A DNA stretch of 64,000 bases. It comes from an uncultured Candidatus Competibacteraceae bacterium. Lineage in GTDB: Bacteria; Pseudomonadota; Gammaproteobacteria; Competibacterales; Competibacteraceae. The position numbers and the translations under genes were made by a program. Within the stretch, counting starts at the first letter, position 1; the number at the start of each line of letters is the position of its first letter. The stretch covers positions 16,406 through 80,405 of the forward strand of contig CAYRGG010000006.1 in NCBI GenBank assembly GCA_964423745.1, in the 5' to 3' direction. The notes beneath the pieces are model-generated. The model saw only the letters and a list, made by a program, of their open reading frames with translations. It was not told the origin of the DNA and ran no database searches. Shown here in pieces: positions 21,804 through 47,028 of the stretch.

Positions 21804-22634
21804 TTATTTTACAGTGCTGTCTGTTTTAACCGTCGAGTAAGCTAAAGGCACTGCGGCTTCAGGAGCCAATGGGCGGAACGTAAAGCTTTCTTGTAAATAA
21901 AGCTGTATCGAGTCGTTATTGTGGCTCAAATAACCAATAGAAAAGTCTTGACCAACCACCAGTTCAAAATCGCCACCTCGGAGACTTATTACCACTGCGC
22001 CATCGACAGCGGGCGCCCATACTACAGGACCGTCTAGCAAACGCTGTACAAAATCAAAAACCCGATAACCTCCGCGGGTTGTGGTTTCCGTCAACCCTTT
22101 GTAGCAGCGTGGACCCAGGGCAATGGCATAGGGACCTGCGATGCCTGCCTGGCGCAGTTTGCTAAGGGCTTCCGCGACCACGTTAGAGTATTTTTCGTAA
22201 TTGTCGCTAAGAGTTAGTTTCTCGGCGGCGGCTTCGCTGATGCCTTTAATATGACCTGCTGCATAACCATGAAAAATAGCGTGGTCCTCAGCCATTGCGA
22301 TAACCCGAGCCGCTTCTATGACTGGTTGCATATCGGCATCTTTACTACCACGTTCGATGGATTCAAGCTCGTTACGGGATAAGGTAAATGGAATACGTAG
22401 CTCAACCAGGGGTTGCACGCGACGCAAATGGGCATGAACATTAGCACCGAGCGATTCACTAAGGGTGTCGGTGCGGCCAGTATCTATAGCAGAATGTGAC
22501 CAACCGAGAGGACCGATAAAGTCGACTATTTTGCGGGCTGCAAGGGTTAATTTAAAAGTACGTGTAGCTTCCTCTTGAATTTCTTCCCAGGCGGCTGGAG
22601 TAATGGGTGCTAATTCACGCAGTAAATTGTTCAT
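21804..22634 (-). CDS. Family 1 encapsulin nanocompartment shell protein.
   Basis: 276 aa. N-terminus MNNLLRELAPITPAAWEEIQEEA is the hallmark encapsulin start. It lies immediately downstream of a cargo gene that carries a targeting peptide. Confidence 0.8.
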   Translation of the reverse strand: MNNLLRELAPITPAAWEEIQEEATRTFKLTLAARKIVDFIGPLGWSHSAIDTGRTDTLSESLGANVHAHLRRVQPLVELRIPFTLSRNELESIERGSKDADMQPVIEAARVIAMAEDHAIFHGYAAGHIKGISEAAAEKLTLSDNYEKYSNVVAEALSKLRQAGIAGPYAIALGPRCYKGLTETTTRGGYRVFDFVQRLLDGPVVWAPAVDGAVVISLRGGDFELVVGQDFSIGYLSHNNDSIQLYLQESFTFRPLAPEAAVPLAYSTVKTDSTVK

Positions 22635-26649: not shown

Positions 26650-28494
26650 TTACTCAGCCAAAAGAGGAAACTCATCAAATTTGACCACTGCCGACTCAGG
26701 ATCGCGGGTATCAAAGACATAACTTTTAACCGTACCTGCTCGCGTATCCAGAATACTAAAGGCAGTCAATTCATTAGAGTCAATACACGGTAATTCATTG
26801 CCATTATCATCTTGTTGAGGCGCAAAGATACTCGGTGGAATAGGCAATAAGCCATGAGGATCTCCGGTGCTGACATAATTTGCACTGTCGTAACGAGGGT
26901 CATCAGGTACATTCCCTCGTTCTTTATAACCTTCCAAATAACAACCAAAACTATTACCCACATTAGACGTTTCTAGGTAATGTACGCCTGCTGCATTTTG
27001 CAGATGAAACCACACATGGGAGTGCCCTTGATGGACCAGTTGAACACCGGTTTCATTCAACAGGGGTTCGATATCGCGGATTAAAATATCAGCCTCGATG
27101 GGATATTCATAGCGTACTGCGGTAAGACGCCCCTCGTCGTCATAGTCGATGATTTGCTCTGGATGTGCAAATACGGGGTTGTAGTTATCTCCGATGCCAT
27201 GAGGTCCTTGGTGCATGACCACCACTTTGTAACGGGCGTTTTTGAACATCTCGCTATTTAACTGTTCCACTAACCAATTGTATTGCTCACTGCCCACCGC
27301 TAAATCTTCAAAAATAAAATCCCCATAACCCCAATTGTCCGGTTTGCTCAGATCTGCCTCTGGCTCTCGGTATTTGCCCCGGGCACTGGCTTGTAAACTG
27401 GGTGTGCGCCAAATGCGGGTGGCATAAAGCCCGATCATATAAACGTCTCCATAGGGGATGGCGTAATAGCGCTCCCCGGATGGGGCATCATCAGGCAGGG
27501 TAAAAAGTTCCTCATAGGTTATGGTGTTATAGGAATTGTCCTGAATCCATTGTTCCCGTACAGTGGGATCATCAAAAGGGTTGACAATGTTTTCCAGCCG
27601 TTCGTAACGCTGTTCAGCGATGGGACGGGGTTGGGGATCATTATACTGGTCACTGGTGGTCGTGCTAGGATTAAAACGTCCCATGACTTCGTGATTACCC
27701 ACCACCGGAAAAAGCGGTGCATGTTGAATAATCTCCCCACCCTGGTAAGTCACTTGACTGGTATAGGTGATGCCATTGCGCGTTTGGCTACGTTCGAGGG
27801 TGTGCATGGCCCGACCTTGCAAACTGGGGAAAAAAGCAAAACCACGATTGTCATCAAACCATTCCGAGGCGCGATCAGGAATATTGACTAAATCACCGGC
27901 GAAAAAAACCGCATCCACCCGACCGATGGTTTCTACAACTTTTTGGAGGTTGGCAGGGGTCATGGCTTTGAGTTGATGATCGGAGGTCAACAATATTTTT
28001 AAAGGCTGTCCTTCAGCAGGCAAAGGTGCGAGGGTAAATTTTTCACTGCTGATTCTTTGTCCTTCCTCAGTAATACTCGTCACCCGATAATTTCGCCGTT
28101 CCCCTGGATGAAGCCCCGTTACTTCGGCTTCGTGTCGCCAAATATCTCTCACCGTAGTGGTTTGATAAATCTGGCCATCTTCCGTTTGTTCACCCACGCG
28201 GGAACGTTCGTCTTCAAACATACGGCTGAGTTTGATGGTATGAGCCGCAAACCTGTCGCCGTCAACCTTAACAAAGTGCTTAGTTCCAGCAAACTCAGTA
28301 AACCAAACCACATGCACTGAGCTATCTGTGGGCAATTGCAAAAAAGGATCAGTAAGTAATGTGGTGGGCAAGGTTGTGTCTTCATCTTGCGCCACTGCTA
28401 GCCCCATTAGTGCAATGAGACTGACTGTTATAATAGCGTTTCTCAACTTTCCCATGAGATTTCCATTTTTGTAGCGTTTTCTATGGAAACCCAT
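26650..28494 (-). CDS. Secreted calcineurin-like metallophosphoesterase (purple acid phosphatase-like).
   Basis: Signal peptide. Motifs GDLVN...DR, VVGNHE, VVMHQGPH and GHSHVW. Confidence 0.65.
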   Translation of the reverse strand: MGFHRKRYKNGNLMGKLRNAIITVSLIALMGLAVAQDEDTTLPTTLLTDPFLQLPTDSSVHVVWFTEFAGTKHFVKVDGDRFAAHTIKLSRMFEDERSRVGEQTEDGQIYQTTTVRDIWRHEAEVTGLHPGERRNYRVTSITEEGQRISSEKFTLAPLPAEGQPLKILLTSDHQLKAMTPANLQKVVETIGRVDAVFFAGDLVNIPDRASEWFDDNRGFAFFPSLQGRAMHTLERSQTRNGITYTSQVTYQGGEIIQHAPLFPVVGNHEVMGRFNPSTTTSDQYNDPQPRPIAEQRYERLENIVNPFDDPTVREQWIQDNSYNTITYEELFTLPDDAPSGERYYAIPYGDVYMIGLYATRIWRTPSLQASARGKYREPEADLSKPDNWGYGDFIFEDLAVGSEQYNWLVEQLNSEMFKNARYKVVVMHQGPHGIGDNYNPVFAHPEQIIDYDDEGRLTAVRYEYPIEADILIRDIEPLLNETGVQLVHQGHSHVWFHLQNAAGVHYLETSNVGNSFGCYLEGYKERGNVPDDPRYDSANYVSTGDPHGLLPIPPSIFAPQQDDNGNELPCIDSNELTAFSILDTRAGTVKSYVFDTRDPESAVVKFDEFPLLAE

Positions 28495-28626
28495 TGTTCC
28501 CGATTTATATGATCTTTTTGTTACATTTTTGTGGCGAATCTGTTGGTATTTAATCTAAATAGGGGAACTTAACTTATAAAAAGGGTTTACAAAGTCATTT
28601 TAATAGCAGTAACAAAAGAAAATATC

Positions 28627-29010
28627 TCAGTTCCCCAAAATATGTTGCGCTAAAGTTCTTTGCACATCGAGAACGCTTGCGCCCTTTTTGAACTGGTGTT
28701 GAATGGGCATGGATTCCCCGGAAATGTAGATTTTCAACTCAGCATCCAGGTCGAAATGCCCTGCGGTCTCGACACTAAAACGCACAATGCTTTTATAAGG
28801 AATCGATTGATATTCCGCCTTCTTACCGGTCATACCTTGTTTATCCACAATCATTAAGCGTCTATTGGTAAATATTAAGGTATCGCGGATGAGTTTGTAG
28901 GCAAGATCCACAGTCTCGCCCGGTATTAATAGATTGGCTATTTCTGTTTCCAGTTTTTGCGTATCCACTTCAGACGCATTACCCAACATACCTGAAAGAA
29001 ACCCCATCAT
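28627..29010 (-). CDS. Bacterial PH-domain (bPH/YokE-like) protein.
   Basis: 127 aa. A core resembling LIFTNRRLMIVDKQG is present. Confidence 0.4.
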   Translation of the reverse strand: MMGFLSGMLGNASEVDTQKLETEIANLLIPGETVDLAYKLIRDTLIFTNRRLMIVDKQGMTGKKAEYQSIPYKSIVRFSVETAGHFDLDAELKIYISGESMPIQHQFKKGASVLDVQRTLAQHILGN

Positions 29011-29041: not shown

Positions 29042-30670
29042 TTATACGGTTTTATTTTTAGACTGCAAATTCGACACCAGTTGCCAATCCAAACCAAACT
29101 TAGCCAGATATTTTTGCAGTCTAGCGGAATCGTTAGCACTGCGTTTTTTCTGTCGGGATTGCGCAAACAGTTCCCGCCCTGCCGCCGCTTGGCTAGGATG
29201 GCGCTGACACAACTCAACCACATAAGCCAGCTGCACGCGATCAAAAGGATCCAAAGCGCTAACCTGATCTTCATCTAGCAATCTATGGAGACTCTGCTGA
29301 CCATCAATGACAGTGGTGTCTACCGCCGGTTGCCAAGCGCGGGTTAAACGATCGATCTCGGCTGCGACAATCGCACTGTTGATCCGCCCGGCGCCAGCTA
29401 AAATACCCATCCGATAGATGCTCGCATTTAGATCCCGAAAGTTATGTCGCCAATGGCCGTTTGGACCGCAAGCAAATTGTAGATATGCGCTACGCGCCGC
29501 CTTGTTAAAATCCACCACGCGCCCTTCGTTTTCGGCAAATCGGCGTAGCTCAAACTCAATATTAGGTTCGATATCTTCTTTGCGTTCTGCTAACCCCGGT
29601 AGCTGATAGCTCCACAGATCAATACGCGCTAACAGATCGTCCCTGAAATGACCTGCCGCCACCGCTTGTTGCAAATCTTTATTGGTTCCCGCAATCAGGG
29701 TGAAGGCGCTGCTGACCGGTTGATCGGCGCCCAGGGGATAAAATGATTTTTCTTCCAAGGCGTGGAGTAGCATCGCTTGTTCATCTGTTCCCAGTTCGCC
29801 AATCTCATCCAGAAACAATAGCCCGCCATCGGCGCATTTCAGTAAACCTGCCCTTTCTTTCTGAGCACCGGTAAACGCTCCTTTAACGTGACCAAATAGC
29901 GTTGACTGGGCTTGATCGCTCCGTAGGGTCGCACAGTTGACACTGACGAACTCCCCCGTCACATGCCCTCGCTGATGTTTCAGCTCATAGATACGCCGCG
30001 CCAATTCCGTTTTACCAGAGCCAGTGGGGCCACTCAGCAGTATCGGCGCTCGGCTGCGAATGGCAATGGTTTCTATCTGGGTGATGAGCGTGTTAAATCC
30101 AGGGTTTGCGGTTTTGATGCCGGCTTTAAGAAATGCTTCCCCCTCTAACTGCTCGTTATAAAACCGTGCGGAAAGCTGATCGTACTTGGATAGGTCCAAA
30201 TCGATGATCTGATAGGAGCCCTTGTTCCGCACTGTTCCATCGTCGGTTTTGCCAGGGGAAAGCTGCAGCAGCTTGGCAGGCAAATGACGACTCTCCGCCA
30301 ACAAAAACCAACAAATCTGAGCCACATGGGTGCCTGTGGTGATGTTCACCAAATAGCGGGTCTCTTGATCGAAGCGCTGCTGCTTAACAAAGTCGAATAG
30401 CTTGGCATATACCTCTTCAAAATCCCACGGTTGCACAAAGTTCATGGGATGAAGCGTGACTTTAATGGTGTCCCGGCAAAAGCGTGCGTCGTCTGCCACC
30501 CGATTCGCTAACCCCAGGGAATGATTGTCGTGGAGCAGCACCAACTCATCCACCACCAGATCTTCATGCATCGCCAAGGCAACATTAGGCCGCCACTTAT
30601 CCCAACGGCTTACCCGACGTCCGGCAAAGTCCAACTGTATGCCGAGAATACTGAAAACCACGGTTCTCAT
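29042..30670 (-). CDS. rtcR: RtcR: sigma-54-dependent transcriptional activator with an N-terminal CARF domain.
   Basis: 542 aa. The N-terminus MRTVVFSILGIQLDFAGRRVSRWDKWRPNVAL is the RtcR CARF start. The AAA+ sigma-54 activator core has GPTGSGKTELARRIY and a GAFTGA-type loop. Confidence 0.8.
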   Translation of the reverse strand: MRTVVFSILGIQLDFAGRRVSRWDKWRPNVALAMHEDLVVDELVLLHDNHSLGLANRVADDARFCRDTIKVTLHPMNFVQPWDFEEVYAKLFDFVKQQRFDQETRYLVNITTGTHVAQICWFLLAESRHLPAKLLQLSPGKTDDGTVRNKGSYQIIDLDLSKYDQLSARFYNEQLEGEAFLKAGIKTANPGFNTLITQIETIAIRSRAPILLSGPTGSGKTELARRIYELKHQRGHVTGEFVSVNCATLRSDQAQSTLFGHVKGAFTGAQKERAGLLKCADGGLLFLDEIGELGTDEQAMLLHALEEKSFYPLGADQPVSSAFTLIAGTNKDLQQAVAAGHFRDDLLARIDLWSYQLPGLAERKEDIEPNIEFELRRFAENEGRVVDFNKAARSAYLQFACGPNGHWRHNFRDLNASIYRMGILAGAGRINSAIVAAEIDRLTRAWQPAVDTTVIDGQQSLHRLLDEDQVSALDPFDRVQLAYVVELCQRHPSQAAAGRELFAQSRQKKRSANDSARLQKYLAKFGLDWQLVSNLQSKNKTV

Positions 30671-30854: not shown

Positions 30855-30870
30855 TGGCACAGCTCTAGCA
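30855..30870 (+). promoter_or_regulatory. Sigma-54 (-24/-12) promoter: TGGCAC-N5-TAGCA.
   Basis: GG and GC elements are spaced exactly as in the consensus TGGCAC-N5-TTGCA. It is divergent from rtcR and about 185 bp from the rtcR start. Confidence 0.5.
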
Positions 30871-30963
30871 ATTACACCCTGTGAATGCCTAACGCAAAGG
30901 TGCTGATTCTGTAAGCCAGCCTGGCATGGGCCAGTCAATCCCTCATGTACCGCGTGGTGTTCA

Positions 30964-31035
30964 GACTTGATAGCTCAGTTGGTAGAGCGATGGATATCAC
31001 TCCATTTGGCGCAGGTTCAACTCCTGCTCAAGTAC
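30964..31035 (+). ncRNA. tRNA-like element. The D-arm and T-arm are canonical, but the anticodon loop is non-canonical at 6 nt, the terminal acceptor pair is mismatched, and no CCA is encoded. It could be a Y-RNA-like tRNA mimic or a tRNA pseudogene.
   Basis: D-arm GCTC-AGTTGGTA-GAGC. T-arm GCAGG-TTCAACT-CCTGC. 6/7 acceptor pairs. Anticodon stem ATGGA/TCCAT with loop TATCAC. Confidence 0.4.
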
Positions 31036-31409
31036 AAAAAACCGAACTTTTAATTCGGCATGGTAAAGGTCATTGACCTGGGGTTCGACTCCCCTTGTCG
31101 TCATAAACGACACCCTTATAACAAGGGCTTCGGCCCACAGCCAGTGGGAATAGCCGGGCGCAGTTGGCCCGGACCAGTACCACCAAACACCGGTCGGCAG
31201 CGTTACTGTCCACAGGATTAGCTTCAGACGAAGGCCAACCTGATGAGTGACCGGCCCAGGAGGCGCTAAGCAAGTGATCCAAACACCTAGTCCAAGATTA
31301 GGTCAGGAGCGCTTATCTAGTAGCTAGGGTCTGTCACCTTGAGGGTCCGCTCAATCTACACTGATTTTGCAACGGTATCCCCCGACCGGTACTTTATGAG
31401 GAAATAATA

Positions 31410-32591
31410 ATGTTTGGTATAAAAAGAATTTTGGTGGCGGATAACGAGCGTGTTGTGTTGTTTAAAAATCGCCGCTTTGCACAAGTGTTAACACCTGGCG
31501 AATACACACTGGTTGATCTGAAGAACCGTATGGAAACGGTTACCTTTAACCTGGATTTGGTAGAAGTGGTAGACAGCAAACTGGACTGGTTGCTGCAACA
31601 GCCCAGCTTTGCCAGATTGGTGGATTGCTACCAGCTTAATCGTGAAGAAATAGCGATCTTATACCAGCGAAACGAGATGGTGCGTTTGGTGGAACCCGGT
31701 GAGCGTTTGGTGGTATGGAGAGATGCGGCTGATGCCCGGGTCGAAGTAATCCCAGTGGCAGAGCTGACCCCAGTGCAAGATCCACTGCTGTCGCAACTGC
31801 AGAAAAAAGGTTGGGAACGCTCGGCAAAAGGCTATAGGTTAGTGAGTGTTTCAGTACCGGCACAGCAGGTAGCGCTGTTGTTTGATAACGGTAACTATGT
31901 AAAAACCTTGCCGTCGGGTCGGTATGGTTACTGGAACTACAACCGGGATGTCTCGTTGGATCTGTATGACTTAAAACTACAAACCACCGAGGTCAGTGGC
32001 CAGGAGATTCTGACCAAGGATCGGGTGAGCCTGCGGGTTAACCTGAGTGCCAGCTATAAGATCAGCGATGTGGTGCTGGCCGCCGAATCGGTCAACAACC
32101 TGAGCGATTATATCTATCGGCAGCTACAGTTGGCGCTGCGAGAAGTGATTGGCACCCGTTCACTGGATGAGTTACTGGCGGATAAAAACGTAGTCAGCGC
32201 TGTGGTGCAGAAACAAAGTCAGACCCGTTTGGCGGATGTGGGTGTGTCGCTGATGGCTGTGGGTGTCCGGGATATCATCCTGCCCGGTGAGATGAAGGAT
32301 ATTCTCAATCAGGTGGTGCAGGCCCAGAAGGCGGCGGAAGCCAACGTCATTAAGCGACGGGAAGAGACTGCCGCGACCCGTTCGCTACAGAACACCGCGA
32401 AGTTTATGGAGGGTAATCCTACCCTGCTGCGGTTGAAGGAATTGGAGACATTGGAAAAAGTGGCGGAGCGGATCGACCGTATCACCGTCGTGGGTGGTTT
32501 GGATCAGGTGCTCAACAATATGGTGACCATTAATCCAACAGGTAACAATAGTGGTGCGTCGTCAAACGTCACCAAAATAGATAACGGTTAA
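31410..32591 (+). CDS. SPFH/band-7 (slipin/flotillin-like) domain protein with an N-terminal extension.
   Basis: 393 aa. The SPFH core starts around residue 155. The C-terminal coiled region is rich in Q/A/E. Confidence 0.6.
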   Translation: MFGIKRILVADNERVVLFKNRRFAQVLTPGEYTLVDLKNRMETVTFNLDLVEVVDSKLDWLLQQPSFARLVDCYQLNREEIAILYQRNEMVRLVEPGERLVVWRDAADARVEVIPVAELTPVQDPLLSQLQKKGWERSAKGYRLVSVSVPAQQVALLFDNGNYVKTLPSGRYGYWNYNRDVSLDLYDLKLQTTEVSGQEILTKDRVSLRVNLSASYKISDVVLAAESVNNLSDYIYRQLQLALREVIGTRSLDELLADKNVVSAVVQKQSQTRLADVGVSLMAVGVRDIILPGEMKDILNQVVQAQKAAEANVIKRREETAATRSLQNTAKFMEGNPTLLRLKELETLEKVAERIDRITVVGGLDQVLNNMVTINPTGNNSGASSNVTKIDNG

Positions 32592-32607: not shown

Positions 32608-32643
32608 AATCAGCAGGTCCCCATGGGCCTGCTGATTTTTTTT
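32608..32643 (+). terminator. Rho-independent terminator of the SPFH gene.
   Basis: ATCAGCAGG...CCTGCTGAT hairpin followed by T8. Confidence 0.6.
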
Positions 32644-37205: not shown

Positions 37206-37873
37206 CTCATAATTCCTTATAGGGATAAATAACTAAAAGATCATTACCGATAGCAAGGCTTTCAATGTACTCATAACCCCTTATAGGGATAAATAACTTT
37301 TGGATGTACATGGAAGCAACCTATCCTCACAAGTCTCATAACCCCTTATAGGGATGAATAACCACCTCGCCAATCACGCCCGTGCCCTGCTCGCTGCCAC
37401 TCATAACCCCTTATAGGGATGAATAACCGTATCGAGGATGCAGCTGATAGCCACGATCAGCGCCTCATAACTCCTTATAGAAATGAATAACATTTTTTTT
37501 GTAGCCATAGCAACCATATTCTCAATCTCATAACCCCTTATAGGGATGAATAACCAGCTGCCAGTAGGGAACAGCCTCATTAGGATTCAGCCTCATAACC
37601 CCTTATAGGGATGAATAACATGGGAATATGCGCCGCCAAGGCATGGGGAGTCATCTCATAACCCCTTATAGGGATGAATAACTATCTCGACCTGGATGGC
37701 GATAAACCATTTATCGGCCTCATAACCCCTTATAGGGATGAATAACATGGGAATATGGGCCGCCAAGGCATGGGGAATCAGCTCATAACCCCTTATAGGG
37801 ATGAATAACTGATAAGCTGATTTAGAAGACAAGCATAATTTTCCTCTCATAACCCCTTATAGGGATGAATAAC
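37206..37873 (-). CRISPR. CRISPR array: 11 contiguous copies of a 28 bp repeat with 35-37 nt spacers. The leader is at the 37874-38009 side, so transcription is on the minus strand.
   Basis: Repeat starts at 37206, 37270, 37335, 37400, 37464, 37527, 37592, 37655, 37719, 37782 and 37846. The cas2-proximal repeats are perfect and the distal ones degenerate. Confidence 0.9.
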
Positions 37874-38009
37874 CCCCCAATTATGGCAAAAAAATGACTT
37901 TAGGAAAGCCATGGAATAGCAAAAAACACCTTGAAATAATATAAAAAGCACTTCAAGCCCCTATAACGAATACTTCACAGTAAATCGAAGTAAGTACAGA
38001 ATAAAAAAA

Positions 38010-38312
38010 TCACAAAACACCGAAGTCTCGCCGATGATCATCTATTGGCTGGCGTTGTACTTCACCTTTGCCCGATTCGTTTTTTTCTAGGTGAATCACT
38101 TCAATGTTGTGGCGGTTTGCAGCGGTAATTTCGGTCAACCGATCACCAGGAATCATCAATCGGCTTAACTCCCGGCGTAATTGAATAGCACTAGCCTCTG
38201 TAATGTCTCCGCAAAATACAGAGTACTGATCGTGATTCAAATACCTCTGCAGCAATTTCTTGAACTTCTGAGTACGTTTTGCCTCTACATCGTAAGTCAT
38301 TAACATATACAT
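38010..38312 (-). CDS. cas2: Cas2.
   Basis: About 100 aa. MLMTYDV...YSVF pattern. It is the last gene before the leader and array. Confidence 0.7.
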   Translation of the reverse strand: MYMLMTYDVEAKRTQKFKKLLQRYLNHDQYSVFCGDITEASAIQLRRELSRLMIPGDRLTEITAANRHNIEVIHLEKNESGKGEVQRQPIDDHRRDFGVL

Positions 38313-38330
38313 TAAATTGAACTCTGCAAA

Positions 38331-39306
38331 CTAAACTTTGCGTTTAAAAGATTCATACTCAGCGATACCCAACAAGTGACGCTCAAGAGCTAAAGCCTCC
38401 CGATACACCCATTCTCTAAAGCTACGGCCTTGATACTTCTCTTCTAAACGAATTGAAAATTGTTCCGCTACATGGCGGCGTCCTGTGTCACTAAGCAGGC
38501 ATACTCCATCGTGTTGCTCCAACCAGTTATCCGCTAGCATATTACGACCTGCCATTCGGAAAATCAGATTATCTCCCAGCACAGGTTTGAAGGGTTCGGC
38601 TAGATCCAAACTTAGCGACGAGCGGCCATTACCGGGGCTGTGCAATAGACTAAAGGTTTCCTCTAAATGTGTTTTGAAAAGCTCATGGCGGCATATCGTG
38701 TAAACCAACTGGTTTAAGAACGACAGCAGACAGTTGATGGGATTGTTAGGCGGACGGCGTACCCGGGGTCCAAAAGCCAATAGGGGATTAGTGAATTTCC
38801 AGGCATCGTAATACCACTGATGTAAATTACCCTCTATGCCCATGAGCATTGCGGTATCTTTTGCTTTGTGAAGGCTCTTCAACAACCGTTGCATCTCAGT
38901 AATCGGTTTTTTTAATTTTTCATTTTTCATTGCCTCTATAGCGGTAATAGAGCAGATTAACGCACATATTATGGCCAGCTCCGCGCACAATTTCTCTGGC
39001 CAAGGCCATACGCTGCCGGTGGTCCAGCAGTGCCTGTGCCTGTATCAGCTTCACTCGTCCGGAAGGGTTACTAGCAACGGGTTCGAAAACGCCTTTGCAA
39101 TAACCATAGTAATCAAATACCGATAACCGCACACCATGCTTACCACACAGGCTCAGTAGCCGGGTGTTGAGATCACTTTCGCCTAGCAGCACCAAATGGC
39201 CAATCTTCTCAATAGGGAGGGCACGGGTACGGCCGCCGGTAGTGAGCATCAGCGTGTTTTCCCGGCGCCGCAAATGTGCCTCCCGGGAGACAAATAACGT
39301 TTCCAT
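38331..39306 (-). pseudogene. cas1: Cas1 interrupted by a frameshift. The N-terminal ORF is 38920-39306 and the C-terminal ORF is 38331-38990.
   Basis: The N-terminal beta-domain and C-terminal alpha-domain (RRPPNNPINCLLSF, DLAEPFKPVLGD) lie in different frames. The combined length of about 325 aa is typical for Cas1. Confidence 0.7.
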
Positions 39307-39314
39307 TCTTTTCC

Positions 39315-39863
39315 TCAGTCATGTCCACAAAAGGCAGCCAACGAGCAGCTAGCGCACAAGGGGATACGCTTAGCGGTTGGCACGGTTTGTTGTTGCGCCA
39401 ACGCTTGCAAATGCTCAGAGGATTGCCATAGGTTTTCTAGTTGTTTTACATCCAACGGCACCTCGCGGCGTTGGCGCGTAGACAGCACATGGGTAATCGC
39501 TCGCCACGCCTTGCCTGTAGCGATGGATAACAGCACGGCATAAAAGGCGGTCTGGTCATTACTGGCTTCCACAGCGCCTCCGGTATCCTTGTTCTCATAT
39601 ACGATGTGGTTTTCCCAGTCAATCCGATCCGGGGTCAGACCAAACAACCCGATAGTGGAACTATCACGAGCATAGCTGGTGAGATGTTTGGCAGTACCCA
39701 CAGCCACCCGTCCATGCCACTGGGCAAAGTTAATGCCGTGAAAATACATCCACGCCCGCCGCTGACACAGTTTAACGTGTTGAAAGTGCAGACCGTGCAA
39801 ACCGAGTCGATCGACGCGCTCAATAAACGCCGCTGCTCGGTTCCAGCGAAATAGCGTCGTCAT
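39315..39863 (-). CDS. cas4: Cas4 (RecB-like nuclease with an Fe-S cluster cysteine motif).
   Basis: C-terminal Cx2Cx5C (CASCSLAAFC) plus an N-terminal Cys. An ExK-like core IVYENKDTGG. Confidence 0.6.
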   Translation of the reverse strand: MTTLFRWNRAAAFIERVDRLGLHGLHFQHVKLCQRRAWMYFHGINFAQWHGRVAVGTAKHLTSYARDSSTIGLFGLTPDRIDWENHIVYENKDTGGAVEASNDQTAFYAVLLSIATGKAWRAITHVLSTRQRREVPLDVKQLENLWQSSEHLQALAQQQTVPTAKRIPLCASCSLAAFCGHD

Positions 39864-41808
39864 CGGTGTCCACCACTAAACCTGTACAAAGAACTAATTT
39901 TTCCGCTGCCGCTAAAGCCTGCGGATAAGTATCCCAAGGGGCATTAGGGTCGCTGTGCAACTCCCGACGCCACGCATCTGGTAAAAAACCCTTATCATCC
40001 AGTGCAGCTGTGTATTGGGTGTGAGGAAAGTGAACGCTGCGTTTTTTCGCCACATAGCGGTGCTGGTCTCGGAGGGACTCTTCTAGACGACCTTGGATCA
40101 GTAATTCCTCGTCGCCGTCCTCTCCCACCACTGACGGGCAGGTATCCAGTAGGTCAGTCTCACGCCGTAACCAGTTCAAATCAACACTAAGGGTGCGGCC
40201 ACGCTCGTCGCGTACCCGCAGCCGTTGCCCTATGTCCCGCAAGGTGTGAGCGGCCTGTTTGAATTTCGTTAACCAGGTTTTGGCGGGTGCGCAGAAGTAA
40301 GGGTCATCACACAGCTCACCCACCTGCTTGAGCAGCGCAAAAATCATCCCTGCTGTGGGCGGTTGACAAGCCCGCAGATGCTCGCGCCGAGGCCCTTTGT
40401 TGCTTGGATGTTCCAGCAATACATTCCAGTACAATCCAGCACTGTAAGCAGCGCGGTTGTTGAGGCTACCAAAATGTGGGTTGTTCGCGTTTTCGTCTAC
40501 GGGTTTAAAACGGGTTTTGGTATCTCGGGCCAGCACGTTGGTTAGGTCGGCAATCCCGACCACACTGTCGGCATGAGTCTTAAGCCAATGTTGCAATCGT
40601 CGCAACCAGGGATTGCGCTGCTCCATAGCAGCGTCAATCCGCACCCATACCTGACCCTGATGATGACCACGGGCAGCGCGGCCATAACGCTGGAGAAAAT
40701 TGAGTGGTGCAAATCCCGGTTCCATAAATAGTAGATTAGCGCCGAATGTCACGCCCATTTCGACACTGGCCGTGGCGATGAGTACGTCGAAAGCCAAGGG
40801 ATCGTGATCCCGCCCAGCGACAAAGTAATCGTTAAAGTTTTGCCCCTGATGACTGTCGTGGATGCTGTTGACCAGCAATGCTTTACCCGCCACGATGCCT
40901 GCTGAAATAAAATGCCGGTGTAAGGAGGGAAGCTGGCGGATCAAATCCGCCAAGGAATTATAGATGACGACCACCTGTCGCTTGGCCTTGACCTCATCCC
41001 TGACTTGCTGCAGATGCTCACCCAAAAGGTCTGCCAAACAGGCGCTAGGGTGAAAACTCAGAGTCACATCTCCATGGACGGGACGCCCACCAGGAGTAAG
41101 CTTCTCCTCCAACAGCGCCATGTCTGTGTTGTTTACCCCAATCTTGTTCAGCACTGGCGCTATGTCGATGGGTGTGGCAGAGAGAAAAGTGACCTTTGCC
41201 CGTCCGGGGACCACACCGTTTTGCGCTGCGACGGCTAGACGCGCACACACCGCAGCCAGACCAAAACCGCGGCTGTCGATGGTGTGAAATTCATCAAAAA
41301 CCAGGTGATCAAATTGAGTCAGTAGCTCGAAGATACCTTCAGCCCCTTGACCGGCTTGTAAATAACGGCCGATCAATAGATAACTGACTACTTCTGGTAC
41401 CGTAAAGACGATCTCACCGCCCCGGCGTGGCGAAAGCTCATAGAGGTCTCGAAGTCGTTGCACGGTAATCTCGCGCACCCCAATCGCACGTTGCCGTTGC
41501 GCCTCGTCGCTGGTCCATAGGGCAACCTTAGTTTCGGCGAGGGTGGGTTCCCAACCCTGTTCATGGACCAGTGCTAGCCGGGTGCTTTGAGCAAGATTCT
41601 GGGCTAGACGCCGGGTCGGCACGATGAATAATACCCGCGTCTGTTGTTGCGCCACCGCTCGTTGAAAGGCATAGCTTTTGCCCGCGCCAGTGGGTGCGCT
41701 GGCAATGCGTACAGCATGGGGATCATCCAGCAATGCCTGCTGAAAGGGCGATAAGCCAGTTTCTGCGCTGCCACCGTCCACAAAGTGTTTAGCAACGGTC
41801 AATTCCAT
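39820..41808 (-). CDS. cas3: Cas3' superfamily-2 helicase without an HD domain. The start is probably the ATG at 41808, which has a GGAGG Shine-Dalgarno; the ORF track extends to 41874.
   Basis: Walker A SAPTGAGKS close to the N-terminus. DExH box VFDEFH. No room for an HD domain. Confidence 0.7.
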   Translation of the reverse strand: MELTVAKHFVDGGSAETGLSPFQQALLDDPHAVRIASAPTGAGKSYAFQRAVAQQQTRVLFIVPTRRLAQNLAQSTRLALVHEQGWEPTLAETKVALWTSDEAQRQRAIGVREITVQRLRDLYELSPRRGGEIVFTVPEVVSYLLIGRYLQAGQGAEGIFELLTQFDHLVFDEFHTIDSRGFGLAAVCARLAVAAQNGVVPGRAKVTFLSATPIDIAPVLNKIGVNNTDMALLEEKLTPGGRPVHGDVTLSFHPSACLADLLGEHLQQVRDEVKAKRQVVVIYNSLADLIRQLPSLHRHFISAGIVAGKALLVNSIHDSHQGQNFNDYFVAGRDHDPLAFDVLIATASVEMGVTFGANLLFMEPGFAPLNFLQRYGRAARGHHQGQVWVRIDAAMEQRNPWLRRLQHWLKTHADSVVGIADLTNVLARDTKTRFKPVDENANNPHFGSLNNRAAYSAGLYWNVLLEHPSNKGPRREHLRACQPPTAGMIFALLKQVGELCDDPYFCAPAKTWLTKFKQAAHTLRDIGQRLRVRDERGRTLSVDLNWLRRETDLLDTCPSVVGEDGDEELLIQGRLEESLRDQHRYVAKKRSVHFPHTQYTAALDDKGFLPDAWRRELHSDPNAPWDTYPQALAAAEKLVLCTGLVVDTDDDAISLEPSSGVY

Positions 41809-42446
41809 TGGTTGACCTCCGCGAAGGCATCTTGCAAAGGCATCTCGGCGCTGAGTTGTAAGCTGTGGAGGCAATAGCGGCTTACTCGTAGCCGGCTGCG
41901 CGGATTGAACAACACTGCCGTGGCAGCGTTCAACCGCACCGAGTTCACAGGGGTTTCAGCATCACAGGGTTTGAGCGCCACCATACCATTACGGTGCAGA
42001 CCGACGCGAATGACTAGCATGTCCTTACCCGTGTAGGCAAAGGGATTAAACCCGAACACAGCGCCGTAGAAGTGTTGGTCGGGCGGCACTTCTTGGGTGT
42101 GAAAAAAGGTTTTAAGGTTGCCTTTGCGGGTAACATCATCGAGTTTTTTTTGAAACCCCCCTTCACTATCTAGGTTAAACCGCCGCGTTAGCGGGGCTAA
42201 TAGACGCGGTTCCGGGGTGGTAAGTACCGATGTTCGGTACGGCATGGCCCTCAAATGACGGCGATAGTCTTTATCCGGCAACAACAGACGTGCGTCCATC
42301 CAGCCTAAAGTAGCGGCCAACCCAAAGGCCAATGCCTGGTCGCCAATCAACTCCGGCAGGGTGGCACTACCACCTTGCACCATTAAACTGTGGTAAGCAA
42401 AGGGGGTTAGGGTAATAGCCTGAATTGGGGTGATGATGGATTCCAT
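41799..42446 (-). CDS. cas5: Cas5-group RAMP (Csc1-like).
   Basis: 215 aa. Glycine-rich segments typical of RAMPs. Its position between cas7 and cas3', and the AGGAG Shine-Dalgarno, also fit. Confidence 0.45.
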   Translation of the reverse strand: MESIITPIQAITLTPFAYHSLMVQGGSATLPELIGDQALAFGLAATLGWMDARLLLPDKDYRRHLRAMPYRTSVLTTPEPRLLAPLTRRFNLDSEGGFQKKLDDVTRKGNLKTFFHTQEVPPDQHFYGAVFGFNPFAYTGKDMLVIRVGLHRNGMVALKPCDAETPVNSVRLNAATAVLFNPRSRLRVSRYCLHSLQLSAEMPLQDAFAEVNQWN

Positions 42447-42470
42447 AAGATGACTCCTTGAGTAGTCGAT

Positions 42471-43478
42471 TCAGCTGGCTTTTTTGCTGCCAAACCAGCT
42501 GTCGAACAAGTTGGCCACCTGCTTGGCTACGCCTCGATATTGATCTCGTAAGCTCCCATCATCCCCTTCAAAACGCTCAATCAAGCGGTGCAGATAATCT
42601 TCTAACGAAGCGCCATCTACGGTGGCCGGGTGTAGATTGGCAAGTCGGTTATGGAGCGATTGGGTTACGGCATTGACGTCACTGAGCTGGGATTCGGGCA
42701 ACTCTTTTAGCAGAGTTTTCAGCAGTTCGTAGGGAGAAGTTTCCGCCCGCTCAAAGGGCGCGGCGTAGGCCCCTACGAAGTAGGTGCGGATGTTAGTGCC
42801 GGTGAGGGAGGTTTGGCCGCCGTAAGCCCCTGCCAGGCCCAGGCATAGCAACAGATGATCTAAACCTTCCCGGGGTAACACCTGTCCCCGAGTCGATAAT
42901 ACTTGCATCAACAGCGTCCCCGGCGTCACGAAGTGGCGGGTAAACAAGTTTTCGCTGTTTTTCTTCTCCACGGCATCGAACAGCGTGCCATCCTCGGCAG
43001 CACGGTTATGGAATGTCTCGTCAACACACAGATGTTTTGGCAACAGACTCAAGGCATCAGAATAATTGACGGCGGCTTTGACCGGCAACACCCGGTTGTC
43101 TTGCGTGGTGGAATCACCGAACACGAGGGTGTTCAGGTCAAAGGCTTCCGAGGGTGCTTGCCCTTTATTGAGTGCCGTCCGGTTTTGCGGGTGTCGCCCT
43201 CCGACGCCATAGGCTCGCAGGATTTGTAGCCCCCGCCCCTTTTCTGGATATTTGAACTTATTGGGTACAGCTCGCATATGGACGCTGCCATCCAGGTCGA
43301 TGTCGGTGATTTCTTCTTCAGCATTGCGAAATACGCTAGGTGCGATGGTTTTTCGCAATAGTACTAAACTGACACTGCCGAGATTCTTTAAGGCGGGATG
43401 GATATATTGCTGTTTTCCGTCGCTACTGGTATCGGTGAGATGGGTAAGCTCGGCGAGAAAGGGGTTTAAGGTATCCAT
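42471..43478 (-). CDS. cas7: Cas7-group RAMP (Csc2-like). The start is taken at the ATG at 43478, which has a strong AGGAGA Shine-Dalgarno.
   Basis: About 335 aa. Its position after the large subunit fits. The Shine-Dalgarno overlaps the stop of the upstream gene. Confidence 0.45.
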   Translation of the reverse strand: MDTLNPFLAELTHLTDTSSDGKQQYIHPALKNLGSVSLVLLRKTIAPSVFRNAEEEITDIDLDGSVHMRAVPNKFKYPEKGRGLQILRAYGVGGRHPQNRTALNKGQAPSEAFDLNTLVFGDSTTQDNRVLPVKAAVNYSDALSLLPKHLCVDETFHNRAAEDGTLFDAVEKKNSENLFTRHFVTPGTLLMQVLSTRGQVLPREGLDHLLLCLGLAGAYGGQTSLTGTNIRTYFVGAYAAPFERAETSPYELLKTLLKELPESQLSDVNAVTQSLHNRLANLHPATVDGASLEDYLHRLIERFEGDDGSLRDQYRGVAKQVANLFDSWFGSKKAS

Positions 43479-43480
43479 GG

Positions 43481-46303
43481 TTACTTCTCCTCTTTGTTTT
43501 GAATGTGGCGGGCGCTGTTGATAAACGCCATACGGTAAATACTGCCCAACAGGCGCAGCTGGCTTTGGCTGGGCAATCGATCGGCCAGTGCGCCATGCCA
43601 GACATGGTTGACGAAGTAGTCGGCAAATGCGGTACAAACTTCACGGCGTTTGCTGGCCGCTTTTAAAAAGGTTTTGTCTTTACGGTCAAGGTTGATATCC
43701 AATTCCCCCGCGATGCCGTTGACCAGGGAGGTATCATCCATTTGGCGGGTTTTTAACAGGATGCGCAGGCTGTCCATCGCTAATTTAAACATCAGCATGG
43801 TTTCGTTGGCAGAGGCGTTAGCGCCAGGACGCTTTTGGATATTGGCGGCCATTTCTCCGAGCCTGACCAGGGGGGCTTCCGATTCACTCATGGCAAAATT
43901 CTCCTTTATGTCACAGTATTGATTGTTAAAGAGCTGACGAACATGTTTTATACGGTAGCTGTCGGTGCTTGCCCCTTCAGAGAGGCGCTTGTCGAACTGC
44001 TGCACGGCAAGGCAGATGGCACCAAAGCGGGTGTTACCCTCGGAATAAGCGCGTAACACCTCGTAGCCCAAAGGGTTTTCGTTTAATAGCACGCGGGCGA
44101 TTTCCAGCCTATCCAACGCGGCGGGGATCTGTTCCAGGCGTAGGCCGTGGGCATTCAGCAAATTTTCCAGTATCCGCGGTAAGGCATCGCAATAAAAGAA
44201 CTCCTTGCGGGGTGTGGGCAGACCACGGAATACATGTAATGGCCGACCGATACGGCGACAGGCCCGCAGCATCATGTCCAGCATTTCAATCTGCTCAGCC
44301 AGTTTTTCTGGCCAGCGCTCAAACCGAGCTATGCGCTGACGCCCTCGGAACATGGGCAGCCCGGTGACGACGCGGCCTTTTTTCACTTCCTGGCGACTGA
44401 GGTCAAACAGCGATAGGTGTTCGTTATCGCTAGACAAGGCCAAGCCGCCGAATAGCCCATTGGTGGTGGGTGAGGAGATCAAGCTGGGTACACCGCTGGG
44501 TTTGGCTCTTACCTGCGCAAATAGGTTTTCCCGCAGCCGATGCTCAGCGATGGAGGTGGGACTGACATTGGTGTGCCCACTTGCCTGGCGCAAATTTTCA
44601 GGTCGATTGTCACGGCCGGAAAAAGCCGACACTTTGACCTGGTACAGTCCTAAGGAGTCACGGATAGGGGAACCCCATGGTACCGGCTCGTCGGTGAACA
44701 AACAGCGCCCCGTTTCTGTTTCATCCACAGCCTTTACCCGTTCGTGCAGTAGCAGTTGCCGGTAACGCTGTACCACCGCTGGATTAATGTACTCACCTGC
44801 GGTAGCTAGGCTGTCTTTAAAACTCGGGCAATCATCCCTACCTTCCCACCAACGCCACAGCAAGCCCTCCTTACCCCAAATCGTGTCTTCAATATCAGGA
44901 TTGATATAGGTTTCACCCAGCAGCCATAGGGCAGTCAGCGCACGTCTTGATCCGCCATCGTCAATGGTTACCAGCCACTTTGGTTGGCCTAGATCAACCT
45001 CCCTTAGCAAGGTTTGCTCACGCTTAGTATAATCCGGGTAATCCGCCTTTTTGTCTTTTGATAGGTCGAGGTTCAGCACCAGCGCCAGTATCGCCGCTTT
45101 GCGTAAATCGACGACTGCCTGCGGGTGTAGGTCAGCGAGACTGGCATAGGGACTCAGGGTAGCACCGGTGATCTTCTCCGGCCAGCGGGGTGCGAGGTCC
45201 AGCGGCTCTAAACACTGCTCTAAGGGGTCAGCCACCACATCCCGTAACGATGCCTTGATGTTAAATAGCCTAGCGATGTCCCCCTCGTTGACAGTTTCTT
45301 GCAAGAATTGAGTCAGCTCAGGGTAATTTGGGCGGGCGTTTTGTAATATGGGTGTGCCCCGATTAGTGATGGTGAGTTCTAATCGAAACGGTAATCGCTG
45401 GGGTAGCTGATCTATTGCCCGTTCCACAATCGCCGGGTGCTGTTGTTTTGGCAACAGCATATATAAACAACCATCCTCATGGGCCTCAATCAGGGGCGGT
45501 AGTCCCGATAGTCGGGTGCAGTTTGTCGAAAGGAGCGTCTGCATTTCATCGACAATGAAGGGATGATGGGGATCATAGATTTCCACCGACTCCCACTCCC
45601 CAAGTTCTAAAGTGCGGTCTTCAATGAGCCGTTTTTTTACGCCTTCCAAACCATCCGTGTGCCAAATTCCGTCGAGCTTATCGGCAAGTTTTATAAAACG
45701 GGTTAAGCCTATATAGTCACGAGGCGGCAGGATTTTGGGCACGCTGCGTTGGGCTTGCAAGTCTTCCACCCGTTCGATGAGATAGAGCACTTGGTCTGGC
45801 GTTAAATGGATACTGCGGCGTTCAAAAAATTTATCGAGTCCGTAACGGGTCATCCGCTCGGCTATCATGGTTTTTGTCAGCGGTGTGTTACGGTCTAGCA
45901 TTAGATCTTTGTCGATGTCGTGCAGGAAAGCGACGACGACCACAATAACGAGTAGTATTTGCAAGTCGTCCGGTTCGATACCGCCGCGGAGTTTATCGAG
46001 CGCAGTCAGCACCAATGCCCCGCGGGTGACTGACAGTTGATGATCCAACAGGGTGATGTTGCGGCTTATCGCATAGCGGGCAGCGAACTCTGGATCAGGA
46101 CTCCAACCCCCTTTACCGCTGATGCTCATCAACCGGACTACCCGGATATCCACATGGGTTCCTTTATCGATAGCTTTTCGCTGTTTTTCGCTCAGGGGTT
46201 TTTCCCGATCCCTAAGCACACCCCCTTCGATAACCTCTTCTAGGAATTCCTGATAGATTTTCTCTGTCAACTGCCGGGCCAGCGATAATCGTTGGATATT
46301 CAT
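43481..46303 (-). CDS. cas10d: CRISPR large subunit with an N-terminal HD nuclease motif (Cas10d-like). The start is taken at the ATG at 46303, which overlaps the cas6 stop as ATGA.
   Basis: About 940 aa. The HD-domain motif FLHDIDKDL resembles Cas3 HD motif II. It is the largest gene of the operon. Confidence 0.55.
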   Translation of the reverse strand: MNIQRLSLARQLTEKIYQEFLEEVIEGGVLRDREKPLSEKQRKAIDKGTHVDIRVVRLMSISGKGGWSPDPEFAARYAISRNITLLDHQLSVTRGALVLTALDKLRGGIEPDDLQILLVIVVVVAFLHDIDKDLMLDRNTPLTKTMIAERMTRYGLDKFFERRSIHLTPDQVLYLIERVEDLQAQRSVPKILPPRDYIGLTRFIKLADKLDGIWHTDGLEGVKKRLIEDRTLELGEWESVEIYDPHHPFIVDEMQTLLSTNCTRLSGLPPLIEAHEDGCLYMLLPKQQHPAIVERAIDQLPQRLPFRLELTITNRGTPILQNARPNYPELTQFLQETVNEGDIARLFNIKASLRDVVADPLEQCLEPLDLAPRWPEKITGATLSPYASLADLHPQAVVDLRKAAILALVLNLDLSKDKKADYPDYTKREQTLLREVDLGQPKWLVTIDDGGSRRALTALWLLGETYINPDIEDTIWGKEGLLWRWWEGRDDCPSFKDSLATAGEYINPAVVQRYRQLLLHERVKAVDETETGRCLFTDEPVPWGSPIRDSLGLYQVKVSAFSGRDNRPENLRQASGHTNVSPTSIAEHRLRENLFAQVRAKPSGVPSLISSPTTNGLFGGLALSSDNEHLSLFDLSRQEVKKGRVVTGLPMFRGRQRIARFERWPEKLAEQIEMLDMMLRACRRIGRPLHVFRGLPTPRKEFFYCDALPRILENLLNAHGLRLEQIPAALDRLEIARVLLNENPLGYEVLRAYSEGNTRFGAICLAVQQFDKRLSEGASTDSYRIKHVRQLFNNQYCDIKENFAMSESEAPLVRLGEMAANIQKRPGANASANETMLMFKLAMDSLRILLKTRQMDDTSLVNGIAGELDINLDRKDKTFLKAASKRREVCTAFADYFVNHVWHGALADRLPSQSQLRLLGSIYRMAFINSARHIQNKEEK

Positions 46304-47028
46304 CGTCCTACTCCCTGCTCCAATAATCCTAGACAACCGAATCCACTGCGGGTCTTTTCCCCGATGCCGGCATACCAAGCGAGGCGCAGATCCACTTCGC
46401 TGCCCGCTAATACCAACGGTGCCCTCATGCCAATTACAAAGCTGCGTTTGCCGTTAGCCATTTTTTTCAGTGGCACCAATACGGAATGCTCAGGATTTGC
46501 CCGCAGATACAATCGATCGGGTTGGGCCTGTAACCGCACCTCGCGGCCAGCAAGACGGGACAATCGGCGGTTAATGACAGTGGCTAAGTCGATGCTGCTT
46601 AAGTCTTTAAGCCAACGTTTACGGTTGTTTTCCCGGATGCTGATTGCCAGTGGCGAGAGCATCAACAAACCCATAACCCCCTCGCCCGGTGGTATAGGAT
46701 CTTGTTCTTGAATAACCTCGGCAGAACTAAAATCGATCATCTCAGCGGTTTGAGCGCGAGCGTGACGAATGTGGACGGGGTCCATTTGCCGGAGTTTTTG
46801 CGCCAACCTGGGATCGAGTGTGGATACCACCAAGGTATGTACGCTGCTAGCATCTTTGTATCGACGGCCTAAAGCTGCGAAATTCCAGGGACTTGCCGAT
46901 GAGCCTATTATCTCCTCAGCCTCAACACCGGTGGCTGTAAAACCGTTGATAAGGGCATCATGGAGGAGGTCGAGGTGTTGGTAGCAAGCCGTTTTAGGTA
47001 AACGTATCCGTATGCGATTCATAGACAT
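46300..47028 (-). CDS. cas6: Cas6 crRNA endoribonuclease.
   Basis: C-terminal glycine-rich loop GIGEKTRSGFGCLG. 242 aa. It is the first gene of the operon. Confidence 0.6.
   Translation of the reverse strand: MSMNRIRIRLPKTACYQHLDLLHDALINGFTATGVEAEEIIGSSASPWNFAALGRRYKDASSVHTLVVSTLDPRLAQKLRQMDPVHIRHARAQTAEMIDFSSAEVIQEQDPIPPGEGVMGLLMLSPLAISIRENNRKRWLKDLSSIDLATVINRRLSRLAGREVRLQAQPDRLYLRANPEHSVLVPLKKMANGKRSFVIGMRAPLVLAGSEVDLRLAWYAGIGEKTRSGFGCLGLLEQGVGR

Follow-up and report, generated by a model that had tools for sequence, protein, structure and literature searches.

Comparative sequence analysis showed that the tRNA-like element at 30964-31035 (plus strand) is one module of a conserved structured RNA of about 520 nt (30873-31390), situated between a divergent rtcR gene and the gene for a Band-7 protein. 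Positions are those of the window, that is, the whole stretch of 64,000 nucleotides (64 kb) analysed here. The element was assigned to b7a-tRNA, a known but obscure class of non-coding RNA, and this identity is well supported by its sequence and setting. The best explanation, which is considered likely, is that the element is a non-decoding, Band-7-associated tRNA mimic of this class that keeps the tRNA L-shape free of translational constraints and acts with the Band-7 protein in RNA repair; the ribonucleoprotein and the repair mechanism are the parts that we infer.

The tRNA-like element and its gene neighbourhood

The element was located within the 740-nt gap between rtcR (29042-30670, minus strand) and the Band-7 gene (31410-32591, plus strand), on the same strand as the latter and 375 nt before its ATG. 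The product of rtcR is a sigma-54-dependent activator with an N-terminal RtcR/CARF domain (Pfam PF06956 RtcR, 5e-68; PF00158 Sigma54_activat, 7e-48). About 110 nt 5' of the element, at 30855-30870 (plus strand), a sigma-54 promoter-like motif was read as TGGCAC-AGCTC-TAGCA, with GG at −24 and GC at −12, its columns being invariant in alignment A5. The Band-7 gene is preceded by a Shine-Dalgarno-like GAGGA (31398-31402, plus strand; direct reading) 8 nt before the ATG, where relatives carry AAGGAG, and encodes an SPFH/Band-7 (stomatin-like, 'slipin') protein of 393 aa (Pfam PF01145, 2e-27). No hydrophobic membrane segment was visible in the protein sequence, and stomatins were the closest solved structures for its SPFH and coiled-coil part; the protein is predicted to be soluble and stomatin-like. 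The transcription unit is ended by an intrinsic terminator at 32608-32637 (plus strand), consisting of a 13-bp stem followed by TTTTTTT, and the terminator scan gave no plus-strand terminators between the promoter or element and the Band-7 gene.

Among the 28 window ORFs scanned, including all of those flanking the element, none encoded RtcB, RlaP or TROVE/Rsr, and the in-cis module is here reduced to rtcR, the RNA and Band-7. Downstream of rtcR (26650-29010, minus strand) the window carries genes for a bPH_1 (bacterial PH-domain) protein and a calcineurin-like metallophosphoesterase, at a place occupied by rtcB in three of the five nearest relatives, and Band-7 is followed by OsmC instead of RlaP. 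The window derives from a metagenomic contig of 109 kb. Elsewhere in the window, a CRISPR-Cas locus that looks like type I-D was found at 37591-47028 (minus strand), with Cas1 (38331-38990), a Cas3-type DEAD-box helicase (39820-41874), Csc2 (42471-43637), a 965-aa protein without Pfam match (43481-46378) and a short repeat array of period about 63 nt (37591-37873); an encapsulin shell protein is encoded at 21804-22634 (minus strand; Linocin_M18, 3.6e-91).

By direct reading, the acceptor stem of the element (GACTTGA/TCAAGTA) forms six of seven pairs, G1·A72 being mismatched, and is followed by T8 A9, the D arm GCTC-AGTTGGTA-GAGC, a 5-bp anticodon stem (ATGGA/TCCAT) closing the 6-nt loop TATCAC, the variable loop TTGGC and the T arm GCAGG-TTCAACT-CCTGC. 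The discriminator is C and AAAAAA follows, so that CCA is not encoded. The nucleotides for the contacts of the L-shape are complete (U8-A14, G15-C48, G18G19, T54-A58, G53-C61), and the model alignment gave the arm order of a normal tRNA, i.e. acceptor, D, anticodon, T. The Rfam tRNA model matched 30964-31035 (plus strand) with 49.1 bits against a gathering score of 29 (E=1.7e-7 for the 64-kb window), flagging the 1:72 pair as non-standard; this was the sole tRNA match in the window, and tRNA was the sole Rfam family above threshold. ARAGORN returned 'tRNA-???', i.e. a tRNA of undetermined identity. The tRNA-like fold, 6-nt anticodon loop, terminal G·A pair and missing CCA described in the earlier note were thus borne out by direct reading and by the model match.

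Relatives were collected by scanning one genome per species, which yielded 53 loci with a Band-7 orthologue; with a single exception these came from Gammaproteobacteria or unclassified Proteobacteria, many of them from Competibacteraceae and Granulosicoccaceae. A metagenome scan contributed a further 32 loci, and a look-up of the five closest proteins (54-57% identity) another five. Band-7 homologues at E<=1e-60 numbered more than 6,650; no relative above 57% identity over the full length was found in the metagenome scan or in a search of 5.8 billion proteins. The element was located in relatives with ARAGORN, Rfam and a D-arm anchor within 800 nt. Of 88 loci, 82 had it upstream of Band-7 in the same orientation, in several gammaproteobacterial families, at 239-652 nt (mostly 420-650 nt) from the Band-7 start. 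Among the six loci in which it was missing, five offer insufficient sequence upstream of the gene, and in the sixth the match covers the protein only in part.

The anticodon stem had 5 bp in 78 of the 82 parsed copies, with a loop of 7 nt in 69, 6 nt in seven, 5 nt in two and 8 nt in two (two unparsed). Twenty different triplets were found in the 7-nt loops, CAT being the commonest (33 copies). Pair 1:72 was unpaired in 62 of the 82 copies and CCA was encoded in 29. Within the window's clade, defined as the window, L003, L004 and L088-L092 (eight loci), seven of the eight copies had a loop of other than 7 nt and most had the 1:72 mismatch. Across 31 Competibacter-type copies, distinct but almost identical, no variation was seen in the D arm or in most of the T arm, and entropy was highest at position 1 (1.81 bits), at positions 34-37 (1.25-1.56 bits) and at position 72 (1.24 bits). 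The reverse would be expected of an RNA that takes part in decoding, and the element is read as non-decoding. The recurrent loops of non-standard length and the quantified hypervariability of the anticodon may be new.

A decoding role with an unusual anticodon loop, as in a frameshift or nonsense suppressor tRNA, would account for the high model score and for the presence of all tertiary-contact nucleotides, but it is extremely improbable: orthologues do not share an anticodon (20 triplets and four loop lengths), many copies have a pyrimidine at position 37, and the element forms part of an mRNA leader downstream of a sigma-54 promoter motif. The likeness to canonical tRNA extends to the cloverleaf, the L-shape contacts and the T-loop sequence, and that to initiator tRNA-fMet to the unpaired 1:72 and the frequent CAT 'anticodon' of relatives; the 6-nt loop and absence of an encoded CCA in the window copy, like its non-conserved anticodon and its place in an mRNA leader, set it apart.

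The same irregularities, together with the partial second tRNA-like copy downstream, could be taken for the marks of a decayed tRNA gene or of the remnant of an integrase-mediated insertion, both of which had been raised before. The 6-nt loop, 1:72 mismatch and lack of CCA recur, however, in clade relatives and in orthologous loci across families, and are therefore family traits and not decay; in 82 of 88 loci the element is found in the corresponding place, its D and T arms unchanged and its stems covarying, and the leader and downstream RNA on either side are conserved with covariation. No second copy of the 3' part of the tRNA was found in the 64 kb at up to three mismatches, and the Pfam scan gave no integrase among the genes flanking the element. 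Decay or insertion accordingly retains next to no probability as an origin of the element. BLAST of the intergenic region against plasmids gave no match, and against phages only generic tRNA-Asn genes (79-83% over about 65 nt), which were uninformative.

Every one of the eight loci in the window's clade has the sequence YTGGCAC-N5-YDGVW 110-135 nt before the element; the remaining 74 loci gave a single match, in L009 at 224 nt. In seven of the eight loci (the exception being L091) rtcR is adjacent, as it is in a minority of related loci overall. RtcR control is thus clade-specific, since most other clades (Competibacteraceae and others) are without a nearby rtcR or sigma-54 motif. The arrangement rtcB<-rtcR<-|->Band7 was seen in L088, L090 and L092; L089 has rtcR, with rtcB not in the stretch shown, and L091 has neither nearby. 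Directly downstream of Band-7, rtcB was found in L003, L009 and L038, and RlaP lies downstream of Band-7 in L088, L089 and L092. The L091 locus (Oleiphilus messinensis CP021425.1, 2460-3000) carries the sigma-54 motif, the leader, an element with a 7-nt CAT loop and the downstream domain, with RHS and ankyrin genes upstream and neither rtcR nor rtcB in the vicinity, so that a separation of the module from its regulator is evidently possible. In L006 (1841-3603), L009 (2764-3707) and L031 (2725-3476), and also in L034 and L041, the element is directly preceded by an array of as many as six tRNA genes (Tyr, His, Phe, Leu, Gln, Lys, Asp, Arg and others), which might be a reserve of tRNAs connected with the repair module.

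A second module, the leader and the downstream domain

The space between promoter and start codon was alignable throughout in the eight loci of the window's clade. Directly after the element, a second, 5'-truncated tRNA-like module was recognized at 31036-31103 (plus strand). It contains a hairpin resembling an anticodon arm (CCGAA-CTTTTAA-TTCGG, 31042-31058), GGTAA at 31062-31066, the hairpin AGGTC-ATT-GACCT at 31067-31079 and a second T arm, GGGG-TTCGACT-CCCC, at 31080-31094. The last of these was present as previously described; it had been called an orphan, and was found instead to belong to this conserved module. The T-loop motif GGTTCRANTCC occurs twice in the 64 kb, on the same strand and 68 nt apart, against a chance expectation of 0.17. 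With the first element masked, the tRNA model matched 31036-31103 as a 5'-truncated tRNA (22.4 bits, E=0.023), aligning CCGAA-CUUUUAA-UUCGG as anticodon arm, followed by a long variable arm and the second T arm. A terminator scanner had flagged the hairpin at 31041-31059 as a minus-strand terminator; the tRNA model fits it better as the anticodon arm of the second module.

A GG(N)AA sequence, a short hairpin and a T-arm-like hairpin follow the tRNA-like element in 65 of the 82 loci, as a covarying unit. The stems of the second T arm vary in concert among loci (GCGG/CCGC, GGGG/CCCC, GTGG/CCAC, AGGG/CCCT, CAGG/CCTG), as do those of the short hairpin (AGCC/GGCT, AGTC/GACT, TGGC/GCCA, ACCCG/CGGGT, AGGTC/GACCT, AACC/GGTT). 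The hairpin at 31042-31058 is a window-specific insertion in the clade alignment, and a fuller second cloverleaf is retained in L030 and L074. On the simplest reading, an ancestral tandem pair of tRNA-like units would have been present, of which the second is now cut down to its elbow-forming parts.

Upstream of the element, a structured 5' leader domain was delimited at 30873-30963 (plus strand) by covariation in alignment A6 and by covariance model R1. Its closing helix (30882-30888/30957-30963) directly adjoins position 1 of the element and might hinder RNase P at the tRNA 5' end; inside it lie the hairpins 30899-30906/30916-30922 and 30924-30933/30937-30948. In A6 (eight sequences) 91.3% of cells were paired, against 26-41% in slid controls, and compensatory changes were found in ten pairs. 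Shuffled alignments matched the observed values in 0-2 of 500 cases for four of the five measures and in 19 of 500 for the number of further pair types. A second sigma-54 promoter considered inside the leader (TGGCATC...TCGCT) is not conserved in the window and is better read as helix.

The downstream structured domain, of about 270 nt (31120-31390, plus strand), was delimited in the same manner in alignment A7 and with covariance model R2. It comprises the hairpin 31124-31136, nested helices at 31143-31147/31180-31184 and 31153-31158/31168-31173 with a conserved CAGTA loop, and a long-range helix (31189-31217/31365-31390) that closes the core of the domain and encloses about 150 nt. In A7 (six sequences) 89.7% of cells were paired, against 38-51% in slid controls; compensatory changes were found in 31 of 52 pairs, against 4-9 in controls, and the observed values were reached by none of 500 shuffles. 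The listed ORFs inside the structured RNA (window 31060-31221, plus strand, and 31070-31282, minus strand; L088 2308-2850, minus strand) gave no family matches and are probably spurious, since they overlap helices with compensatory changes.

Both covariance models were built from relatives only, with the window left out. R1 matched the window solely at 30873-30969 (30.4 bits, E about 1e-6) and R2 solely at 31120-31221 (31.3 bits, E about 1e-6). In other clades, R1 gave significant or weak but position-concordant matches just upstream of the tRNA-like element; R2 gave no match there and detected the downstream domain in the clade of the window alone. A structured spacer of 430 nt, peculiar to the Competibacter clade, showed compensatory changes in 32 of 100 pairs. 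An nhmmer profile of this downstream RNA gave no match in the window, and likeness between the two by eye was limited to the CAGTA motif. No Rfam family was matched by the leader, the second module or the downstream domain. The leader, the truncated second module and the downstream domain with its long-range helix may be new features.

The structured RNA could also be purely a cis-acting mRNA leader, in which the tRNA fold recruits RNase P or tRNA-binding factors to process, stabilize or gate the Band-7 mRNA and no trans-acting ribonucleoprotein is formed. This is judged unlikely, though the geometry is in its favour: in every case the RNA shares a strand with Band-7 and precedes its start by 239-652 nt with no terminator between, and the long-range helix stops about 20 nt short of the ribosome-binding site. 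In Competibacteraceae (L008-L053; alignment A4, columns 3-13 with 467-474) RNAalifold moreover predicted the Shine-Dalgarno region of Band-7 (GGAGAACC) to be base-paired to the second T arm (GGTTC...TCC). That pairing is, however, impossible in the window and shows no compensatory changes, and it was rejected. A cis-acting leader also leaves the retention of the full tRNA tertiary contacts unexplained. Furthermore, b7a-tRNA and the bacterial Y RNA YrlA are reported in the literature to exchange protein partners occasionally, which fits a trans-acting cofactor better.

Known RNA classes and the proposed role in repair

The b7a-tRNA is a predicted non-coding RNA encoded beside a Band-7 gene; Burroughs and Aravind (2016) are reported to have proposed it as the counterpart of the Y RNA that accompanies Ro60, and in 2018 it was described as still awaiting experimental validation. 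No later experimental work on its expression, processing or Band-7 binding was found in the literature. The class is defined by strong tRNA resemblance and a place beside a Band-7 gene in RtcB/RtcR neighbourhoods, and the window element is in exactly that position, with rtcR adjoining and with rtcB and rlaP carried by relatives. It departs from the class in its 6-nt loop, in having no rtcB or rlaP in cis, and in being one module of a structured RNA of about 520 nt.

A Y-RNA-type tRNA mimic had been suggested in the earlier note. A conserved non-decoding mimic in an RtcR-controlled repair context stands from that suggestion; membership of the Y RNA family does not. YrlA is circularly permuted (V, T, closed acceptor stem-loop, D), and its ends form an Rsr-binding stem with GNCGAA near the 5' end (Chen et al., RNA 2014, PMC4201824; Wang et al. 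2018). The window element resembles it as a tRNA mimic with near-invariant D and T arms and tertiary contacts kept; YrlA is likewise RtcR-controlled in some bacteria and is thought to be an RNA cofactor working with a scaffold protein in RNA repair or decay, and the RtcR-controlled RNA-repair setting is shared with Salmonella rsr-yrlBA-rtcBA. A YrlA-type RNA tethering Rsr (Ro60) could further point to a single GACGAAG (motif GNCGAAN0-1G) at 31228-31234. It is nevertheless a very improbable identity: the arms are in unpermuted order with a Band-7 protein as partner in place of the TROVE protein Rsr/Ro60, no TROVE was found among the 28 window ORFs scanned, the motif lies far downstream and occurs in only two of six relatives, and no Y RNA family was matched at E<=10. 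The element is, on sequence and setting, a functional analogue of YrlA and not a member of its family.

For the Band-7-associated tRNA mimic the following course of events is proposed. In Salmonella, 5' tRNA halves with a terminal 2',3'-cyclic phosphate activate RtcR by binding to its CARF domain (PMC7790460), and RtcR here would be activated in the same way. It would then fire the sigma-54 promoter at 30855-30870, for which the motif and its fixed distance were shown and activity is presumed. The resulting transcript of about 1.75 kb would contain the leader, the mimic, the truncated module, the domain of about 270 nt and the Band-7 ORF, and would end at 32608-32637; the structures within it are supported by covariation. 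The mimic, either excised by tRNA-processing enzymes or kept in the larger RNA, would associate with a Band-7 oligomer. Following the proposal of Burroughs and Aravind, this ribonucleoprotein would serve as scaffold or cofactor when RtcB repairs tRNA or rRNA damaged by nucleases, in the manner of Y RNA with Ro60/Rsr. From the Salmonella work we infer that tRNA damage may control both the RNA and Band-7 via RtcR. A repair role here needs partners encoded elsewhere, because rtcB and rlaP were not found in the window.

The mimic might alternatively be a bait or sensor: anticodon nucleases (toxins, colicins) would cut it and the 5' half with its cyclic phosphate would bind the RtcR CARF domain, giving feed-forward induction, or the mimic would act as a nuclease decoy. 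The anticodon loop changes faster than any other part of a molecule that is otherwise fixed, and differs in sequence and length between close relatives, RtcR is known to bind such halves, and arrays of five to six tRNA genes lie just upstream in some loci. The variability is, however, equally explained by simple loss of constraint, and in the window's clade the RNA would be made only once RtcR is already active; a bait or sensor is considered decidedly unlikely as the principal role, and action with Band-7 in repair is preferred.

A bolder form of the preferred explanation is offered tentatively, as a possibility that is not the expected outcome. In it, the composite RNA of about 520 nt would be a previously undescribed molecule that forms the RNA subunit of a soluble stomatin-like oligomer. 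The two would make up a bacterial 'vault-like' particle whose production is induced through RtcR by damage to tRNA, with the hypervariable anticodon loop as anticodon-nuclease bait or sensor. In vaults, the shoulder domain of the major vault protein is SPFH-like, and TEP1, a TROVE protein, binds the vault RNA. The likeness lies in an oligomeric shell protein of SPFH fold combined with a small structured RNA, and in an evolutionary link to the Ro/TROVE-Y RNA systems. The vault is, by contrast, eukaryotic and has a different RNA, and a closed shell around RNA is not a known trait of bacterial Band-7.

Rtc RNA-repair systems are widespread, and their repair targets and the reason for their tRNA-like RNAs are still open questions in the field. 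Since 2016, b7a-tRNA has been a computational prediction only, and pipelines label it an odd tRNA or a pseudogene because it is absent from Rfam. The window locus and about 80 relatives now give a testable picture, in which a promoter linked to a damage sensor, a multi-domain covarying RNA and a soluble stomatin-like partner are combined. Should the RNA and the protein prove to assemble into a particle, bacteria would have a second counterpart of the eukaryotic Ro/Y-RNA and vault ribonucleoproteins, and the fast-changing anticodon loop would link the RNA to an arms race with anticodon nucleases.
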